Of a stretch of 64,000 bases of DNA, positions 2,644 through 13,836 are shown in pieces. The position numbers and the translations under genes were made by a program. Every line of letters begins with the position of its first letter. Within the stretch, counting starts at the first letter, position 1. The stretch covers positions 131,269 to 195,268 of the forward strand of contig CAYYLC010000001.1 in assembly GCA_964472415.1 (NCBI GenBank), written 5' to 3'. This stretch comes from an uncultured Gammaproteobacteria bacterium. GTDB lineage: Bacteria > Patescibacteriota > Microgenomatia > Levybacterales > GWA1-39-11. The notes beneath the pieces were generated by a model. It ran no database searches and was not told the DNA's origin. It was given only the letters and a program-made list of their open reading frames with translations.

Positions 2644-3114
2644 TTATTTTGATTGTTTTAACGAATTTGAATCTTTCTTTACTAAAAATATTATGAGAAA
2701 GAAGATGCTACTTAGAAGATATAGGAGTGCCAGAATTGAGAAGTTGATTGGGATTCTAAAGAGAATTAAAGCAATTACAACTGAGGTAAATACTAGAGCC
2801 ATTGTGCTATTAACTTGTAGCTCAGAGCCTCTACCAGGAATTTTACTTACGCTTATTAACCTTATAACTCCATGGTTATAGACATAATCTAAAGGATGCA
2901 TAGGTAATTTTATTCCAAGAAGTGCTAATGTTGCCGCTGTAAGTAGTATATATGGATTCTTTAAGAATACGCCTAATAATACGATTGCTATGTATATTGG
3001 ATAACTAAAACGAATTCCATACTGAACACTTTTTTTGTCTGATATTAACTTGCAAGCAATCCATTGTGCCTCTAATCGGACATGTAGTTTTCTCCACAAG
3101 CCTTTTAACTTCAT
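2644..3114 (-). CDS. Hypothetical integral membrane protein
   Basis: 156 aa with four predicted hydrophobic helices; no motif recognised. Confidence 0.45.
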   Translation of the reverse strand: MKLKGLWRKLHVRLEAQWIACKLISDKKSVQYGIRFSYPIYIAIVLLGVFLKNPYILLTAATLALLGIKLPMHPLDYVYNHGVIRLISVSKIPGRGSELQVNSTMALVFTSVVIALILFRIPINFSILALLYLLSSIFFLIIFLVKKDSNSLKQSK

Positions 3115-3153
3115 AGTTTTAATTCGTTTACTTTGATTTTTTGTATTTCCATA

Positions 3154-6100
3154 TTAGTTAGCACCAGTCCAGTCTTTTGCCATAAGTTCTGCTTGTTCTA
3201 ATACAATTTTGGTTGCACCTTCCTGTTTGTCTGGTGGATATTTATATTTCACGAGTAATCTTTTAATGTAGATTCTCAGTTTTGCTTGAACGCTTTCTTT
3301 TATTGTCCAGTCAATTGATGTGTTCTTGCGAAGCATGTCAACCAGTTCTCGTGCCATTGCCTTGAGTGTTTCATCTCCAAGTTCACGCACTGCACTTTCA
3401 TTATTTGCCAGCGCATCATAGAAAGCGATTTCTTCAGGTGATAGCCCCATCTCATTGCCAATTTCTCTTTCATGCTGAATTTTCTTTGCCAGTTCCAGAA
3501 GTTCTGCTATAACTTGTGCTGCTTCGATTGTTCTGTTTTGGTATTTACGAATCGTTGCCTCTAGCATTTGTGCAAATGAACGAGATTTTACAAGATTTGT
3601 CTTTGTCATTGTTCTCAATTCATCATTTAATAGTTTTTTAAGAAGTTCTAATGCAACATTTTTATGCTGCATATTTTTTACTTCACTTAGAAATTCCTCT
3701 GAAAATATTGAGATGTCAGGAGACTTAATTCCAGCAGCTGAATATATGTCTATCACAGCATCTGAAGTGACAGCAGAGGAGACTATTTGTCTTATTGCCA
3801 CATCATAGTCATCATCTGTTGGCCCGCCATCTTGTGGTTCCATTTTCATTATTGCACCACGCACTATCTGATAAAATCCAACCTCATCTCGTATTTCCAT
3901 TGCCTTGTCATGAGGCACTGCAAGTGAAAATGCTTTTGATAATTCATTCACAGCTCTCAAATATCGTTTCTTACCATCCTCAAGTCCTAGTATAAAGTTT
4001 GTCGCAGCAGATATCGCTTGAGTCCTCTCAGAAGCTTTACCATTGAAGTATTTCTGATAGTCAAAGCCATGATACATTCCTCGTACAATCTCATACTTTT
4101 CAAGCATTAGTGTAACCGCTTCATCCTGAGGAATTGCGGTTTCTGATCTATCAGATTCGGAATAGTAGGAAAGTGCTTCTTTAAGCTCTGGTGCAATTCC
4201 AATGTAGTCAACAATAAGTCCACCTTGCTTGTCCTTATAAACACGATTAACACGAGCAATGGCTTGCATCAGTCCATGTCCTTGCATTGGTTTATCTATG
4301 TACATTGTATGAAGCGAAGGCACATCAAAGCCTGTCAGCCACATATCACGGACAATAACCAGATTCAATTCATCATCTGGATCTCTCATTCTTCTTGCCA
4401 TTGCGTCCAGCTCGTGTTTTGATCTGATATGAGGCTGAAAATTCAGCGGATCAGTTGCACTTCCGGTCATAACTACTTTCAGGAATCCTTTTGTTTCATC
4501 ATCACTATGCCATTGTGGACGAAGTTTTATGATCTCGTTGTAAAGCTCAACGGCAATACGTCTGCTCATTGCAACTATCATGCCTTTTCCATCCATGACT
4601 GAAAGTCTGTTTTCAAAATGATCCACCAGGTCCCGCGCAACCAGTGCTATTCTTTTTTCAGATCCTACCATTGCTTCAAGTCTGGCCCACCTACTCTTTA
4701 GTTTTTCTTTCTTTTCAATTTCTTCACCTTCTGTTAACTCTTCAAATTCTGGATCAATTTTTGGTTGCTCTTCTTTTTTAAGCTCAATTCTGGCAAGTCT
4801 CGCCTCGTAATAAATCGACACAGTTGCGTGATCCTCAACAGCGCGGGTTATATCGTAGATATCGACATACTCGCCAAATACTGCTCTTGTGTTCCTGTCC
4901 GACAGTTCAACAGGTGTGCCTGTAAAACCAATAAATGACGCGTTCGGAAGCGCATCTCTCATGTGTTTTGCAAATCCACTGATAAATTCATACTGACTTC
5001 GATGTGCCTCATCGGCAATGACAACAATATTTTTTCTGTCAGATAACATCGGATAGTCCTGCTCCCCATGAACAGGTAAGAATTTTTGTATGGTTGTGAA
5101 TATTACGCCACCTGAGGCAACTTTTAGAAGCTCTTGTAATTCATTTCTGTCATCTGCTTGTTTTGGTGTTTGTCGTAAGAGATCAGAGCTCTTTGAAAAT
5201 ATTCCAAACAATTGATTATCAAGATCATTTCTGTCAGTCAGTATGACAAGAGTAGGATTGTTAAGTTCTTGAATGATTTTTCCTGCAAAAAATGTCATAG
5301 TGAGACTTTTGCCAGAACCTTGAGTGTGCCAGACGACACCAGCACGTCTATCTCCTTCTTCTAGCGTGGCTTTTATAGTACTTTCTACCGCTTTGTTAGT
5401 GGCAAAGTATTGATGATAAGCAGCAGCTTTTTTAATTGTCTTTTCGCCATCAGTTTCAAACACGATGAAATTGGAAATAATGTCGAGTAATCGTGACTTA
5501 TCAAAGATTCCTTTTAACAGAACTTCAAGCTGAGGCAAAGCATTGGAAGCAATATCAATGCCATTGAGTGTTCGCCATCTCGTGAACCATTCAAGATTTG
5601 CAGACAAAGTACCAACTCGTGCTTCATTTCCATCACTAATGATTGAAAGTTCGTTATAGGCAAAAAGTGATGGAATATCTTGCTTGTACGTTTGGATTTG
5701 ATTAAATGCTCCTCTGACAGTTGCTTTTTCGTCTCCTGGATTTTTCAGTTCTATGACTATGACAGGTAATCCATTGACGAATACGACAACATCAGGACGT
5801 CTGTTATTGTTATTTTCAATGATGGTGTATTGGTTAACTGCCAGAAAGTCATTCTCGTCAATATTCACAAGGTCCACAAGCTTTACTTTGTCACCAGCGA
5901 CAGTTCCATCACTTCGCATATACTCTACATCCACGCCATCTCGCAGATATGAATGAAAGATTCTATTATTTAGGATTGCACTTGGAGTGATGAATGGAAC
6001 CTGCAGAACTTTCTTAAATGCTTCTTCTTTTGCGTCCATAGGAATATCAGAATTGAATTTCTCAATCGCATTCCAAAGTCTTTCCTCTAGTACTACATCA

Positions 6101-6234
6101 GCATAAGATTTTCGCTCAGGACTCACTCCGTCTGGTGGTGGTGCAATCTCAGGCCCACCAATAACAGAATAGCCTAATTCCTCAAGCCATTCTAAAGTCG
6201 CTAATTCTAAATCTGTTTCTGTGTATTTATTCAT
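3154..6234 (-). CDS. hsdR: Type I restriction enzyme R subunit (endonuclease/helicase)
   Basis: 1026 aa; Walker [13 protein letters not shown]; DEAH box [10 protein letters not shown]; typical HsdR N-terminus [22 protein letters not shown]. Confidence 0.95.
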
Positions 6235-7210
6235 GTTTATTTATCTGTGCTTTGATTAATTCAAAACAGTCATTGTTGTATAAAACAGGAATAGCGGAGC
6301 CTCCACGTTTTGTTCTTTTATATTCTCTTTCTTGTCTTTGACTTCTGAAATTGTATGCAGAATACTTCTCATCACCTTTTAGATTGTGTTTTTTGATAAT
6401 CTTGTTTAGATCATTTTGTTTGAATTTAGGAACCTCTTTTTTTAACTTGTCTCTAAGATCAGTCCATGTATATGGATATAAGTCTGTCACATTTTTACGT
6501 TCTATGATTGCAATAGCAGCATCTTTTGCTTCTTTATCCACTATTATTCTTGGAGCTTTTACTTCAGCGATTCGTTTTGCAGACACGATTTCGGCTTTGA
6601 TTTCGCACACTAGATAAAATCCTTCATTCTCTACTTGATTGTTCTTTTGCCTTTCAGAAATGTCTAGAATGATATTTTTAATCACACTAGGTTCATTGTC
6701 TATTGCAAGTGTCGTAAATGTCTTGAAGTTATAAGCAAAACCTAGTGGCAGAATGTTGAAGTTATAAGTTTTACTAAAATCTAAATTAAACCATTCTTTG
6801 ACTAATTTATTAAAATTTCTTAAAGATGCAGCACCAAGCGAATATACAAGATAAGACGTAGAGTCGTTATTATAAAAATGTATAGCAGTGTCTCTAATAT
6901 CAACCAACCTGTCTAGATTTTCTTCGAGAATATTATTTAGTTCGAGTTTCTTAAGTGCACCCATAATATCTACAGTATATGGAGTTTTCGCACGATTCTT
7001 TTTAATATATCTTCCTTCATATACATAAATTGCATTTGGATTTTTAGAATCCATTAGTATTTTTGCTTTTAATAATAGCTCCCATGCATTGATAAGTAAG
7101 ATTACAAATACTTCCTCTCTATACTTAAAATCTGGTTTATTGTAGATTTCAATCGAAGACAATGCTGCAGCGACTGACTTATCAAGTAAATTTTTGTATA
7201 TTGCTCTCAT
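6227..7210 (-). CDS. Hypothetical protein embedded between hsdS and hsdR; candidate HEPN-like nuclease (Rx4H motif); no P-loop
   Basis: 327 aa; overlaps hsdR start by 8 nt and ends 2 nt before the hsdS stop; motif IRDTAIH (R106..H111, nt 6878-6895); no Walker A; same position as PrrC in prr loci. Confidence 0.55.
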
Positions 7211-7211
7211 A

Positions 7212-8570
7212 TTAATTGACTCTTATCCTCCCACTCATAAGTCTTGGTAAAAGTGAATCTCTGATTTCGCTAAGCACATATACCTCTTTTTGGTTTGAAA
7301 TATACTTTTCCATTAAATTCACGATTAGTTTTTCAAAGCTTTTAAGGATATTATTTCCGGGTAGCAGAATCGAAACACTCTCTAAAATATCTGGACTAAT
7401 ATTTGGCTGAGCACTACCATATGCTTTTTCAACTATTGATTTTTGTATGTCACCGCTTCTTAGTAGGAAATATAAATACCAATGGTAATTTGAATTCTTT
7501 AGAAAATACTTTCCGACTCTTTGATTTAAAACTAACTCATAGTCACCTTTTACAAGGATGCCAATTTTTCCTGTTGTATTACCTGACATGGCAATCAAAA
7601 TATCTCCAGAATTCAAGATGAACTGTCTTGTCCTGTCTTTTACCTCCTCTTCAGAAACAAACTGAATATCCGTTACATCAACATCTGGATCAATAATATT
7701 TTTAATTTTGATTACGCCATATTTTCCAGAATCTTTAAAAGAAGAACCTTTAAAAGCAAATCCTGACTTTAGAGTTGCTATTTCTCTTACCCGTGAAGCT
7801 TCCCATCCTTTTGGAATCTCGCCTAATTCACTTTCCACCATCTCACCACCACTGGATTTGTACGGTTTGCCATTTTCGTTTGGAAATTCGAAATCCACAA
7901 ACCATCTTTTGAATAGTGTCTTGCCGATTTCCTCAAGCGTCTTATTCATCCTACGGTTTAATTCAATCTTGTCATCAAGCGAGGAGAGAATTGAGGCGAT
8001 TTGTTGTTGTTCACCAATTGGTGGATACTTGACCCAAGATTCCTTTATAGCCTCAGTTGTCAAATTCACTTGAACTCCACTTCGTGCTGTAGTTCTTAGC
8101 CTTTCGATATAACTTCTGGAATTCAGATAATAGTATAGATATGCACTGTCTACATTTGAGTTAGGACGAATTCTGCCGACGCGTTGGTTAACTAAAAATT
8201 TTTCATTATTAATTCTTGCAGAGTGACCTAACAAGTTCATGCTCGACTTCATGTCTGTCATACACATGAGGATATCATCCTTATCGGTTATGTAGCTTGC
8301 AAGCTTTCTAGCCAGGCTCTGATCCGCATAATCCTCTTTTCCTGTTATTTTAATTCCACCTCCTATATCAATGTTCCCCATCTTGAAGACTGGCACAGCA
8401 TTCTCAGATTTCTCAGTGTACGAACGACTACTAAACGCATATCCATTTGAAAAATCGGCTAACTCTTTTAGCTGCCTTAAATTCCAATCCTCTGGAATTT
8501 CACCAATTTCTGTTTGCCTGTCCGCCGTAGCTTTAGCGTTGGAGGGTTTGTATTGTGTATCGGATTTCAT
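7212..8570 (-). CDS. hsdS: Type I restriction-modification specificity subunit with two target-recognition domains
   Basis: 452 aa; central conserved coiled region PPIGEQQQIASILSSLDDKIELNRRMNKTLEEIGKTLFKRWFVDFEFP and C-terminal LLPRLMSGRIRV. Confidence 0.93.
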   Translation of the reverse strand: MKSDTQYKPSNAKATADRQTEIGEIPEDWNLRQLKELADFSNGYAFSSRSYTEKSENAVPVFKMGNIDIGGGIKITGKEDYADQSLARKLASYITDKDDILMCMTDMKSSMNLLGHSARINNEKFLVNQRVGRIRPNSNVDSAYLYYYLNSRSYIERLRTTARSGVQVNLTTEAIKESWVKYPPIGEQQQIASILSSLDDKIELNRRMNKTLEEIGKTLFKRWFVDFEFPNENGKPYKSSGGEMVESELGEIPKGWEASRVREIATLKSGFAFKGSSFKDSGKYGVIKIKNIIDPDVDVTDIQFVSEEEVKDRTRQFILNSGDILIAMSGNTTGKIGILVKGDYELVLNQRVGKYFLKNSNYHWYLYFLLRSGDIQKSIVEKAYGSAQPNISPDILESVSILLPGNNILKSFEKLIVNLMEKYISNQKEVYVLSEIRDSLLPRLMSGRIRVN

Positions 8571-8573
8571 AGC

Positions 8574-9410
8574 TTATGACTTAAGCTGTTTAACTTTATG
8601 GATTTGGCTCAAAGACTTCATTTGGGAGATGGCAACTTTGTTGAGCTGAAGTAGTCGCTCGCTTTGCTCCAGTCCCAGTTTAATAAGCTCTGCATTGAGT
8701 GACTCGAGATTGGTGAGACAAACTAGCTGGGCGGCGTTAGCGTAGTCTCGGACGTTACCTGGCTTTTTGGGGTTGGCGCTTCGCCACTCTTTGGCTGTCA
8801 TACCAAACAAGGCCTTATTGAGAACATCTGCTTCACTGGCATACAAGGCATTTGCTTGTGACTTAGATATTTTTGGAGGTATAAGAAATTCTTTGACAGC
8901 ATCGGTGTGAATACGATAGTTGATGGCCGCCAAATTGCGCTTCAGATCCCATCCTAGTTTTTCCCGCTCAATCTCTTCTTCTTTAAGCCGCTGAAATTCC
9001 TTGATCAAGAATAGTTTGAACTCTGCACTAATCCAGCTGGCAAATTCAAATGCGATGTCAGTGTGGGCAAAAACACCTCCACCATATCGACCAGGTTTCA
9101 TAATCAAACCAACAGCCTGAGTTGCTTCTATCCATCGTTTAGGAGTCAAAGAAAAGCTATTTGAACCCGCCTCGTTTTTAAAGGCGTCGAATTCGACGCC
9201 TTTAAACTCGGCGTTGTTAATACTCTCCCACAGTCCAAGAAATTCGATAGTGCTTCTATTTCTCAACCAATTTTGGATGATGTAATTCGTTCGCTCACTG
9301 TCTTTATACTTAGCAATATCTGTCAATGAAATAAAATCAGCATTTTCCAAAGTGCGAGTGGTAATTTCAATTCCCTTTACAATTATTTGCCTTGATTTTT
9401 GTTTCTTCAT
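8574..9410 (-). CDS. KilA-N (APSES-type) DNA-binding domain protein inserted between hsdM and hsdS
   Basis: 278 aa; ..[30 protein letters not shown].. resembles the KilA-N/ORF6N signature (GTWVHPDLA..FA.WLSP.F); C-terminal half is coiled-coil-like; start overlaps hsdM stop by 4 nt. Confidence 0.65.
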
Positions 9411-10945
9411 ACCTCAAATCCAACTTTTTTTAAATTCTCTTTAATTTTTTCTTCAAGCTCTTTTGACTCTATGAATTGTGCTGATAATTCGCTGGTCAGT
9501 CTTGCCATTTTCTCCTCAAATACTTCGTCATCTTCCATCTCAAAATCCGTGCCAACATATCTACCAGGAGTGAGGACATAGCTGTTCTTCTCTACTTCTT
9601 CAATACTTGCGGCTTTACAAAAGCCCTTCACATCTTCGTAATTCCCATCTTTGTTTCGCCAGTTGTGGTAAGTGTCTGAAATCCTTTGTAGTTCTTCATC
9701 AGTCAGTTCTCTGTGTCTTCTATCTATCATTGTTCCCATATTGCGAGCATCAATAAAAAGAATTTCGTTATGTCTGTCTCGGAATTTGTGATTATGTCTA
9801 TCTCGTGAGACAAACCATAGAGAGGCTGGAATACCAGTAGTGTAAAAGAGCTTATCTGGAAGTGCCACGATGCAATCCACAAGTCCTGCTTTTATGATTG
9901 CTTCTCTAATGATTCCCTCATTGGAAGTGTTAGAGGATAAAGCACCGTTTGCCATAACGAATCCTGCAATACCAGTAGGTGATAAATGATGGATGAAATG
10001 CTGAATCCAGGCATAGTTGGCATTGCCTGTTGGAGGCACACCATATTTCCAGCGGACATCATCGCGGAGTCTCTCACCGCCCCAGTCGCTCATATTAAAT
10101 GGAGGATTGGCGAGAATAAAATCTGCTTTTAAGTCTTTATGAAGATCATTATGAAAACTGTCTCCTTCAGATTCGCCTAAATTTCCTTCAATTCCACGAA
10201 TTGCCAGATTCATTTTGGCAAGTCTCCAAGTAGTGGCATTGCTTTCCTGTCCATATACTGCAATGTCACTAACTTTTCCGCCATGTTCTTCCACAAACTT
10301 TTCACTTTGGACAAACATCCCACCACTTCCGCAACAAGGATCGTAAACTCTTCCTTGAAATGGCTCTATCATAGTAACAAGGAGTTTTACTACTGAAGCT
10401 GGTGTATAGAATTCACCGCCGCCTTTTCCTTCTGCACTAGCAAATCTTCCAATGAAGTATTCATAGACACGTCCAAGAATATCTTTTGACTTTGAGGCTT
10501 TGTCTCCAAGTCCAAGTGAGCTGAAAATATCAACTATTTCACCGAGTCTTTGTTTATTAAGATCTGGCCGTGCATAACGTTTAGGAAGAACACCTTTTAG
10601 AGTAGGATTCTCTTTTTCAATTGCTATCATTGCGTCATCAATGATTTTGCCTATTTCAGGCTTCTTGGCATTTTCTTTGAGATAATCCCATCTCGCATTC
10701 TCCGGTACCCAAAATATATTTCTTGCTTTGTATGCGTCCTTATCCTCCCATTCACCATTAAATGCTTCTGGATCATTTTTGATTGACTGGTACGTTTCTT
10801 CAAAAGAGTCGGAGATATATTTGAGGAAAATAAGTCCTAGTACAACATGTTTATATTCAGCAGAATCCATGTGTCCACGAAGTTTGTCCGCAGCAGCCCA
10901 TAATTTCGCTTCAAAACCTATATTTGCAGAACTGTTTTTTGCCAT
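9407..10945 (-). CDS. hsdM: Type I restriction-modification N6-adenine DNA methyltransferase subunit
   Basis: 512 aa; HsdM_N-like N-terminus ([35 protein letters not shown]); catalytic ILANPPFN motif. Confidence 0.95.
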
Positions 10946-10969: not shown

Positions 10970-11164
10970 TTATTTTTTGTTTCGTGACAAATAAGCTTCA
11001 ATATCACTCTTGCGGTATCGTCTGTCACCAACACCTTTTCGAGTGCCAACACGAACGGCTTTCAGAATTTCGTTCTTATCCCAGCGCCATAAAGTTTGAA
11101 CATTTACATTCAAGATCCGTGCTGCCTCTTGGATAGATATCAGCTCTTCAAGCGCTGAATTCAT
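10970..11164 (-). CDS. Small helix-turn-helix DNA-binding protein (excisionase/MerR-like HTH_17 family), first gene upstream of hsdM
   Basis: MNSALEELISIQEAARILNVNVQTLWRWDKNEILKAVRVG..: classic excisionase-family HTH; ORF opens at 11200 but Met at 11164 fits. Confidence 0.65.
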   Translation of the reverse strand: MNSALEELISIQEAARILNVNVQTLWRWDKNEILKAVRVGTRKGVGDRRYRKSDIEAYLSRNKK

Positions 11165-11432
11165 ATTAGTTGAGCTTAATTTTACTAAATTGAGGATCAA
11201 AACACCAGATAAGATGAGTTTTCATCATTCATGATAAGTTAGGCTATTATTCTTTCCAAAATAAAGATTTTTTAATAACAAAAGACTCAAGTAATACTTA
11301 TTAGGTACAAATCAAAAAAGACAAGAGAAAGCAAAGAAGGAGATCGAGGACATTGTATTTGCGTTAGAACCGAAAGAATTGGCTGTTATATCAAGCAATT
11401 TAGTGTCTTACGAGCCTATCAGTTCTGCTTTG

Positions 11433-11503
11433 CTGCCGAGCAGGGATTCGAACCCCAATAAACGGATCCAGAATCCGTTGTCCTACCATTAGACGACTCG
11501 GCA
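11433..11503 (-). tRNA. tRNA-Gln (anticodon CUG)
   Basis: Reverse complement folds as a cloverleaf: acceptor UGCCGAG/CUCGGCA (U1-A72, discriminator G73, as in bacterial tRNA-Gln); D-arm GUCU..GGAC; anticodon stem ACGGA/UCCGU with loop UUCUGGA; T-loop UUCGAAU; CCA not encoded. Confidence 0.85.

Positions 11504-11624: not shown

Positions 11625-13836
<2,212 letters not shown>

Follow-up and report, generated by a model that had tools for sequence, protein, structure and literature searches.

Payne et al. defined the phage defence candidate (PDC) families by 'guilt-by-embedding', that is, by the co-oriented embedding of their genes in BREX, DISARM and Type I restriction–modification (R-M) loci, and a role of these families in defence is putative (10.1101/2024.01.29.577857). 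In the same work, DUF3644 is classed as a HEPN domain, with validation in the HEC-08 system, and PrrC is found to be almost exclusive to Type I loci (10.1101/2024.01.29.577857). In a second described system, the prophage abortive-infection protein BstA, which has a KilA-N-like N-terminal domain, blocks phage DNA replication (Owen et al. 2021; 10.1101/2020.07.13.199331) and is neutralised by a cognate DNA element, aba, overlapping its own gene; aba is 63 bp long, has terminal direct repeats and spans the start codon (10.1101/2020.07.13.199331). Here we analyse a gene of the PDC-S22 family, encoding a KilA-N protein, that lies between hsdM and hsdS in a 64,000-nt stretch of contig CAYYLC010000001.1 (positions 131,269–195,268; referred to as the window), together with a 30-nt palindrome contained in its coding sequence. 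A KilA-N gene at this position is a useful but ordinary annotation, and the interest of the locus lies in the palindrome.

The gene occupies positions 8574–9410 of the minus strand and encodes 278 amino acids from an ATG start, as defined by the open reading frame list and by matches in Pfam, PADLOC and PHROG. A repeat search revealed a perfect, strandless palindrome at positions 9177–9206, in which the arms TTTAAAGGCGTCGAA and TTCGACGCCTTTAAA, each of 15 nt, are 100% complementary, abut without a spacer and are read in frame as codons 69–78. This is the sole palindrome in the window scoring 14/15 or better, and by our own calculation some 6 × 10−5 perfect 30-nt palindromes are expected by chance. 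When the same 30 nt were scored in 78 homologous loci, 15/15 was found in 25, 14/15 in 28 and 13/15 in 12; the mean number of pairs is 13.7 versus 9.1 expected from the peptide back-translated with the codon usage of each gene.

The symmetry is maintained through at least 13 complementary codon pairs. Many of these change both encoded amino acids, as in CCC/GGG (Pro/Gly), CGC/GCG (Arg/Ala), CAC/GTG (His/Val), CCT/AGG (Pro/Arg) and CTG/CAG (Leu/Gln), and further in TCC/GGA (Ser/Gly), TAT/ATA (Tyr/Ile), GTT/AAC (Val/Asn), AAT/ATT (Asn/Ile) and TCG/CGA (Ser/Arg). The choice among synonymous codons tracks the symmetry too: Val is GTC where Asp is GAC, Ile is ATC where Asp is GAT, and Leu is CTC where Glu is GAG. 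In an ungapped alignment, 95.2% of cells are paired versus 80.9 ± 0.7% in shuffles, two-sided changes number 131 versus 38.8 ± 6.9, and the covariation score is 0.365 versus 0.120; none of 500 shuffles gave values as high. The two-sided changes fall in 6 of the 13 pairs. As a control, the partner was slid by one column, whereupon pairing fell to 53–58%. Homogenisation of the arms by template switching could add to the covariation without selection, but does not explain retention of the palindrome over such an evolutionary range.

The constraint is also evident within the gene. The entropy at third codon positions shows a single deep minimum at residues 66–80, of 0.78 bits versus 1.3–1.7 elsewhere, so that the palindrome is the only region with reduced synonymous variation. 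The dyad extends through its centre, where TCGAATTCGA is nearly invariant, and the central Glu is encoded by GAA in all 77 of the 78 sequences that keep a Glu. Across the 1.74 Mb of loci retrieved, this core was counted 89 times, where about 1.7 would be expected; the KilA-N genes of the 80 genome loci and of the window account for 79 of these sites, and KilA-N genes or remnants at other loci for most of the remaining 10. The palindrome was found in all eight of a further set of close relatives and in plasmid, phage, satellite and integrative and conjugative element (ICE) copies of the gene. No Rfam family covers it in the gene or in six loci with stand-alone sites that were scanned, and the searchable literature contains no mention of KilA-N together with a palindrome. 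A TTTAAAG run considered as a −1 frameshift site was rejected, the heptamer being out of the required frame and the stem starting on it. Overall, we conclude that selection at the level of the nucleic acid maintains the symmetry of this intragenic palindrome throughout the family.

Related palindromes occur outside the gene. Viral contigs were scanned with two patterns, TTTAA-N5-TCGAATTCGA-N5-TT.A.A and TTTAAA-N4-TCG-N4-CGA-N4-TTTAAA, each of which, by our estimate for a collection of assumed size, would give about one match by chance. At least 183 sites were found, their constant bases being fixed by the search patterns; 41 fall within KilA-N coding sequence, and the remaining 142 show no similarity to KilA-N in the surrounding 450 nt or so, the counts for viral sites here and below being among the matches listed. 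The stand-alone sites, at least 142 in 70 unrelated flank contexts, are mostly non-coding and of the type TTTAAA-N4-TCGA(A/T)(A/T)TCGA-N4-TTTAAA, with AATT, AAAT or ATTT at the centre; L196:1488–1517, L210:7788–7817 and L287:12410–12439 are examples. Their arm bases left free by the patterns are largely symmetric, and the arm 5-mers are the same as those in the genes. The arms differ by a Hamming distance of two or more in 45 of 71 unique stand-alone sites versus 16 of 66 sites in genes, and in 9 of the 24 strongly asymmetric sites both arms are known from genes, where 37 of the 1024 possible 5-mers are represented; such sites are thus hybrids.

Among the neighbours of the stand-alone sites are genes for lysins, a holin, Ltp, integrases, RhuM, DUF3644 and Tad2-like proteins. 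Several adjoin integrases, and the sites were considered as phage attP; this was rejected, since 15 of the 142 lie within 3 kb of an integrase, which by our own estimate is no enrichment over random placement in a 40-kb temperate phage. Three inverted repeats centred on TCGAATTCGA or TCGATTTTGA fill a 100-nt intergenic region directly upstream of a phage RhuM gene (L178:2670–2753) in the manner of an operator array, and this triple arrangement upstream of RhuM was found in 12 related contigs. In three related phages of streptococcal type, L196, L237 and L238, the palindrome is identical and the flanks have diverged. Beyond the stand-alone palindrome of the same phages, near the integrase, lies GAACATATGTAC (L238:1234–1270 and its equivalents in L196 and L237), which by eye resembles a Gram-positive SOS (Cheo) box. 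In another contig, L213, a stand-alone palindrome at 3415–3444 lies between a ROOL RNA (2771–3327, 246 bits) and a Bacilli-1 RNA (3537–3601, 74 bits).

Several shortened copies of the gene break within a few codons 3′ of the palindrome. In L197 (10161–10571), residues 9–79 are followed by a Bro-N gene that replaces the rest of the gene and then by an integrase; L235 (3475–3732) retains residues 50–81 and L099 (8574–8807) residues 9–86; and in L065 (8556–8782) residues 44–81 are fused to residues 242–277 with the palindrome intact. A decayed fragment in L003 (7001–7264) covers residues 1–74, and in L019 (629–2080) two extra N-terminal pieces spanning residues 1–101 each have a variant of the palindrome of their own.

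The protein itself is readily assigned. A preliminary description of the locus, made from the sequence, had placed it in the KilA-N/ORF6N family on the strength of a central motif, which is present exactly as quoted in the translation. The KilA-N half of this assignment is borne out by a match to the Pfam family PF04383 (E = 2.1 × 10−17; 63.4 bits, with a gathering cutoff of 23.8) over residues 11–144 and profile positions 3–106 of 107, the envelope corresponding to positions 8979–9380 on the minus strand; the ORF6N half is not, there being no Pfam match to PF10543 at E ≤ 0.01. PADLOC identifies the protein as PDC-S22 (E = 3.6 × 10−128; residues 3–277, profile positions 3–274 of 281). PHROG 2657 matches over the full length (E = 4 × 10−57), and PHROG 2657 and PHROG 129 are both annotated 'transcriptional regulator'; NCBIfam has no family model for the protein. 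The open reading frame is confirmed as a real gene because homologues form more than 8000 clusters at 90% identity, the closest being 65–80% identical over the full length. The best 120 homologue clusters are 58–80% identical, mostly at least 65%, and are mostly from bacteria of the Candidate Phyla Radiation (CPR), the nearest named being CPR/Microgenomates. The window copy, flanked by hsdM and hsdS and co-oriented with both, conforms to the embedding by which PDC-S22 was defined. The arrangement is thus already catalogued at the family level, and the gene is an ordinary member of PDC-S22. Within the searchable text and supplements of 10.1101/2024.01.29.577857, the palindrome, the C-terminal domain resembling DdrC that is described below and the spread of the family to archaea and phages are not mentioned.

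An AlphaFold2 model of the full protein, built with 42 homologues, has a pLDDT (predicted local distance difference test score) of 85.6 and comprises three N-terminal strands and helices, a long helix spanning residues 129–151 and a helical C-terminal half. In the KilA-N region, pLDDT is mostly 84–94, and Foldseek matched this domain to viral KilA-N proteins with E values from 4 × 10−9 to 1 × 10−3 and, weakly, to the APSES proteins Mbp1 and PCG2 (E = 0.4–0.5). The C-terminal domain (residues 145–278; positions 8577–8978, minus strand) is a predicted helical bundle that has no Pfam model, with no match even at E ≤ 10. Modelled alone, it is all-helical with a pLDDT of 90.1 and a predicted template-modelling (TM) score of 0.81. 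Its invariant polar residues include N164, Y165, T169, E193, N198, G218, N219, R221, D222, E236 and N239. With the C-terminus of a Phage_pRha protein from a Providencia phage the domain shares about 30% identity; being common to KilA-N and Phage_pRha proteins, it is therefore a module that is combined with different DNA-binding heads. Neither Pfam nor PADLOC detected an ATPase or nuclease domain in the protein.

For the whole protein and the C-terminal domain alike, the only meaningful match in the PDB was to DdrC of Deinococcus radiodurans (7QVB, 7UDI and 8U0G), a domain-swapped DNA-binding dimer (PMC9303277). With the full-length model the match has an E value of 8 × 10−4; with the C-terminal domain it has a probability of 1.0, a TM score of 0.53 and a root-mean-square deviation of 4.5 Å over 121 columns. 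PDB sequences searched with the 42-sequence profile gave nothing at E ≤ 1, so there is no sequence link to DdrC. We treat the predicted DdrC-like fold as a lead, suggesting that the C-terminal domain may dimerise and help in DNA binding, and not as evidence of homology.

The surrounding operon is a canonical Type I R-M system with hsdM, hsdS and hsdR all present on one strand, as annotated by Pfam and PADLOC; all the genes named here are on the minus strand. The methyltransferase gene hsdM (9407–10945; HsdM_N and N6_Mtase, E = 5.9 × 10−110; PADLOC MTase_I) is followed by the KilA-N gene, by the specificity gene hsdS (7212–8570; two Methylase_S repeats; PADLOC Specificity_I), by a second embedded cargo gene encoding a DUF3644 (HEPN) protein (6227–7210; Pfam E = 1.3 × 10−44; PADLOC PDC-S19, E = 3.6 × 10−63), whose translation contains the R-x4-H motif RDTAIH, and by the restriction gene hsdR (3154–6234; HSDR_N, SWI2_SNF2 and T1RH-like_C; PADLOC REase_I). 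The close packing noted in the preliminary description is real: the hsdM stop and the KilA-N start overlap by 4 nt as ATGA (9407–9410), and the TAA at 8574–8576 is separated by 3 nt (8571–8573) from the ATG of hsdS. This organisation shows a gene predicted to be expressed by translational coupling to hsdM. Its G+C content at third codon positions is 0.43, versus 0.24–0.33 in the neighbouring genes, a difference that speaks for its being cargo.

At the head of the operon is a small HTH_17/excisionase-like gene (10970–11200; Pfam HTH_17, E = 1.5 × 10−11; PADLOC mad1, E = 2.9 × 10−10), a candidate regulator, and directly upstream of the operon ARAGORN identified a tRNA-Gln(CTG) gene (11432–11503). 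The setting is island-like in these respects. A check around the operon found no integrase and no flanking direct repeat, and a repeat search for direct repeats of the tRNA-Gln 3′ end that might mark island boundaries gave none that was convincing. Further along the window, an open reading frame for an ATP synthase β-subunit (12040–13830, 596 amino acids) ends in a highly charged extension, rich in Lys, Glu and Asp, that at about 130 amino acids is unusually long for its C-terminus.

The relation of the KilA-N gene to its host operon was examined from both sides. A survey of 80 close relatives of the window hsdM (63–87% identity) yielded 52 informative loci, in which hsdM and hsdS are joined directly in 28, separated by other inserts in 23 and separated by a truncated KilA-N gene in one. 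The inserts at the loci of hsdM relatives encode ORF6N (4), RhuM (3), YhcG/DUF1016 (2), GmrSD, TIR, NYN, PIN, AAA_15/21, AbiTii, DUF3800, DUF3644 and Bro-N proteins. In the closest hsd operon, L087, where hsdM is 87% identical and the same HTH gene lies upstream, the slot holds an open reading frame of 82 codons for a membrane protein, with the same ATGA overlap as the KilA-N gene. In related operons the hsdS–hsdR or equivalent slots hold PIN_12, Hypoth_Ymh or NERD genes, or nothing. Viewed from the KilA-N side, hsd genes are present at 8 of 80 species-level homologue loci (about 8–10), in the differing arrangements hsdM–KilA-N–hsdS, hsdS–KilA-N–hsdR and hsdS–KilA-N–x–hsdM, and a DUF3644 gene is present at none of the 80. 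Among the closest relatives of the KilA-N protein (65–79% identity, mostly CPR), six of eight distinct contexts are Type I operons, with the gene in variable positions, four of them directly after hsdM; this linkage is non-random and agrees with the guilt-by-embedding idea (10.1101/2024.01.29.577857).

Because these surveys show the gene to be absent from related operons and variable in position, we regard it as cargo and not as a component of the R-M system. It is swappable, although within its clade Type I operons are genuinely preferred, and, judged by its comparative distribution, is neither an R-M subunit, nor a dedicated controller, nor a HEPN partner. A role as an R-M controller (C) protein was rejected for a 278-residue KilA-N protein that 51 of the 52 related hsd loci lack and whose homologues are mostly outside R-M systems; a guard of the PrrC type was rejected for a protein with no ATPase or nuclease domain and with only about 10% of its broader homologues in hsd loci. 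In one CPR-type operon (L371:2834–4708), RhuM and KilA-N genes lie side by side between hsdM and hsdS, so that cargo genes can stack in one slot; no sequence similarity between PDC-S22 and RhuM was found. In four related hsd operons (L125:4024–4305, L136:9693–9977, L160:6908–7159 and L154:1659–2198), a duplicated 3′ fragment of hsdM follows the embedded cargo gene, which suggests that cargo is exchanged together with the end of hsdM by recombination.

The family is widely dispersed. A species-level survey, in which one genome per species was scanned, gave 547 relatives; the best 80 of the 547, which are 57–68% identical, come from Bacteroidota, Firmicutes, Proteobacteria, Cyanobacteria, Planctomycetota, CPR and archaea (Nanoarchaeota, Woesearchaeota and Methanospirillum). 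Most species-level homologues lie outside R-M loci, and Pfam counts in the flanks of the 80 agree, revealing in addition neighbours of Type III-like, PLD, SNF2 and recombinase kinds as well as ordinary housekeeping genes. The earlier suggestion that this is a phage- and plasmid-type protein was well founded. Copies on Aeromonas plasmids adjoin a Tn3 transposase and a resolvase, a Photorhabdus copy lies beside a serine recombinase on a phage-like plasmid, and a Streptococcus agalactiae ICE carries a copy near its integrase. In Staphylococcus phage EW (ORF014) the gene is placed between repressor/metalloprotease genes and the integrase, and in the Javan satellite phages of Streptococcus between repressor genes and the integrase; a tyrosine integrase lies within 3 kb of 14 of the 41 viral gene copies. 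Conservation of this degree across domains of life indicates that the gene is under strong constraint and frequently transferred.

The explanation that we favour, while giving it rather less than an even chance, is that a dimeric DNA-binding protein provides a layer of defence or exclusion independent of the R-M system and that the palindrome is its own cognate site. The protein would act alone, neither as a subunit nor as a dedicated regulator of the R-M system, and would dimerise through the DdrC-like bundle; it may thus supply a second layer of phage defence or superinfection exclusion. The intragenic palindrome would be the DNA site that the protein recognises and, lying inside the reading frame, would travel with the gene into any operon, where it could serve autoregulation or self-immunity of the carrying element. 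Such a site would suit a cargo gene that has no promoter of its own and has to function wherever it lands. The phage palindromes of related type may then be targets or decoys. The location in lysogeny modules, between repressor and integrase, supports a defensive role, as it is typical of prophage defence genes. In a fuller form of this proposal, which we consider doubtful as a whole, PDC-S22 would be a self-contained module of protein plus site, in which the dimer and the palindrome it recognises are inseparable by transfer, the arms and the residues they encode diversify in step as cognate variants, and the free and hybrid sites of phages are targets, aba-like decoys or recombination joints.

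Several points weigh against this explanation. Binding of the palindrome by the protein is purely putative, and the searchable literature reports no function or defence test for any PDC-S22 member. The similarity to DdrC is weak (E values of about 10−2 to 10−3, 15–20% identity, TM scores of 0.3–0.5), and four-helix bundles are common. A PADLOC scan at E ≤ 0.01, against a database that presumably contains a BstA model, matched PDC-S22 only, so there is no sequence link to BstA. If the protein reads the variable arm bases, its specificity would have to shift along with every change in an arm; a hairpin, a cruciform or homogenisation of the arms by template switching accounts more simply for the strict complementarity. 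Moreover, the stand-alone phage sites are often asymmetric hybrids, which is unfavourable for the site of a homodimer.

The hybrid sites and the breakpoints bear on a different idea, that the palindrome is a recombination joint and not a binding site for the product of the gene. With 12- to 13-bp inverted arms and a constant A/T centre, it resembles a lox, dif or att core, and it could be used by integrases, by serine recombinases or in homologous exchange as a short 'linker', so that gene halves and accessory modules are swapped among phages, satellites and defence islands; in that case the KilA-N protein might be an accessory factor or the mere host of the site. In favour of this, the truncated copies in L197, L235, L065 and L099 break just 3′ of the palindrome, both arms are known in 9 of the 24 strongly asymmetric sites described above, small serine recombinases adjoin the gene on the Photorhabdus and Aeromonas plasmids, and some stand-alone sites are directly upstream of serine or tyrosine integrase genes. 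We nevertheless judge such a joint unlikely: the stand-alone sites show no enrichment close to integrases (15 of 142 within 3 kb), most gene copies have no recombinase nearby, integration at a mid-gene site would disrupt the gene unless the partner were another copy of it, and a symmetric AATT centre provides no polarity. A hairpin in mRNA or single-stranded DNA, formed 200 nt into the coding sequence by a 13-bp stem and an AAUU loop, could act on translation, mRNA decay or processing, thereby setting the level of a potentially toxic protein whatever operon hosts the gene. It would account for pairing that is kept while the arm sequence varies, with two-sided changes in 6 of 13 pairs, and a 90-nt segment folds as RNA with −35.1 kcal/mol (z = −4.9). 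Mismatches on the sense strand also favour G·T/T·G (35) over A·C/C·A (6), but this wobble excess stems mostly from the replacement of Lys AAA by Arg AGA at one codon, the variable arm columns having 13 G·U versus 10 A·C, so that it is no real RNA signature. A plain hairpin would not need loop bases that are invariant at a synonymous site (GAA, never GAG), the stand-alone copies are often asymmetric, no Rfam family matches and the TTTAAAG run is out of frame for −1 frameshifting; on balance we find a hairpin improbable.

Two further possibilities concern the protein and not the palindrome. It may be a regulator of mobile elements without a role in defence, whether as a transcription factor, an antirepressor-like protein or a recombination directionality factor of prophages, satellites and ICEs, with the hsd copy as a hitch-hiking passenger. 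The names given to PHROG 2657 and 129, the repressor and integrase genes that adjoin the copies in phage EW, the Javan satellites and the S. agalactiae ICE, and the sharing of the C-terminal domain with a Rha-family protein all fit such a regulator. The PHROG names are, however, annotations and not tests, and copies of 57–80% identity in chromosomes with no visible mobile element and in CPR R-M operons point to a function at the level of the host, so that we rate this account as quite unlikely, if slightly less so than the hairpin. The preliminary description had instead proposed a dedicated regulator of the R-M system that senses infection, or a partner of the HEPN-like (DUF3644) protein, and this we consider the least likely reading and a very improbable one. 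Translational coupling to hsdM and the Type I contexts of six of the eight closest relatives, four directly after hsdM, speak for it. Its regulatory part is not supported by the synteny survey, whose outcome is one that the preliminary description had itself set as refuting: syntenic hsd loci lack the gene, among them the closest operon (L087) and 51 of the 52 related ones; only about 8–10 of the 80 broader homologues are in hsd loci, in differing positions, and the operon already has a small HTH gene of its own (10970–11200). Partnership with the HEPN protein fares no better, as DUF3644 does not co-occur at any of the 80 homologous loci and the related hsdS–hsdR slots contain PIN_12, NERD or nothing.

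What is new here is an intragenic 30-bp palindrome whose symmetry is preserved by paired codon replacements across bacteria, archaea, plasmids and phages, and which was not found in the searchable literature. If it is the protein's own site, a cargo gene without a promoter would have a compact means of bringing its regulation or self-immunity along, and the BstA–aba principle would gain a second example, in a family that is far more widespread. Should it instead be a recombination joint, it would provide a concrete sequence for the shuffling of accessory and defence genes between phages and defence loci. On either reading, a defined 30-bp site offers a direct experimental handle on an uncharacterised family with thousands of members.

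Comparison with known systems places these features in context. The window gene belongs to the same family as the PDC-S22 genes already catalogued, and nothing about it differs at the family level. With the KilA-N/APSES proteins, such as phage P1 KilA and Mbp1 (Iyer, Koonin and Aravind 2002), it has in common a match to the KilA-N profile and a modular architecture with swappable C-terminal domains; it differs in representing a specific and very conserved subfamily, with weak structural similarity to Mbp1/PCG2 and no ORF6N match. The likeness to DdrC, for the C-terminal domain and the whole model, is at the level of the fold only: the N-terminal domain of DdrC is described as a winged helix–turn–helix and not as KilA-N, and DdrC is a damage-response protein specific to Deinococcus. 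RhuM (PDC-S05), ORF6N and guards of the PrrC type share with the KilA-N gene the same slot, orientation and swap-in/swap-out behaviour in related operons, but PrrC is nearly confined to Type I loci whereas PDC-S22 homologues are mostly elsewhere. In the BstA system, aba is a 63-bp element at the start codon, whereas here a perfect 30-bp palindrome of putative function lies at codons 69–78. BstA is encoded beside the prophage repressor, a slot shared by the PDC-S22 homologues of phage EW and the Javan satellites, though not by the window copy. Both systems combine a two-domain protein, with a KilA-N-like domain at its N-terminus, and a gene-borne DNA element; because BstA likewise has such a domain and a DNA element within its own locus, it is the closest precedent for a PDC-S22 protein that would recognise the palindrome in its own gene.

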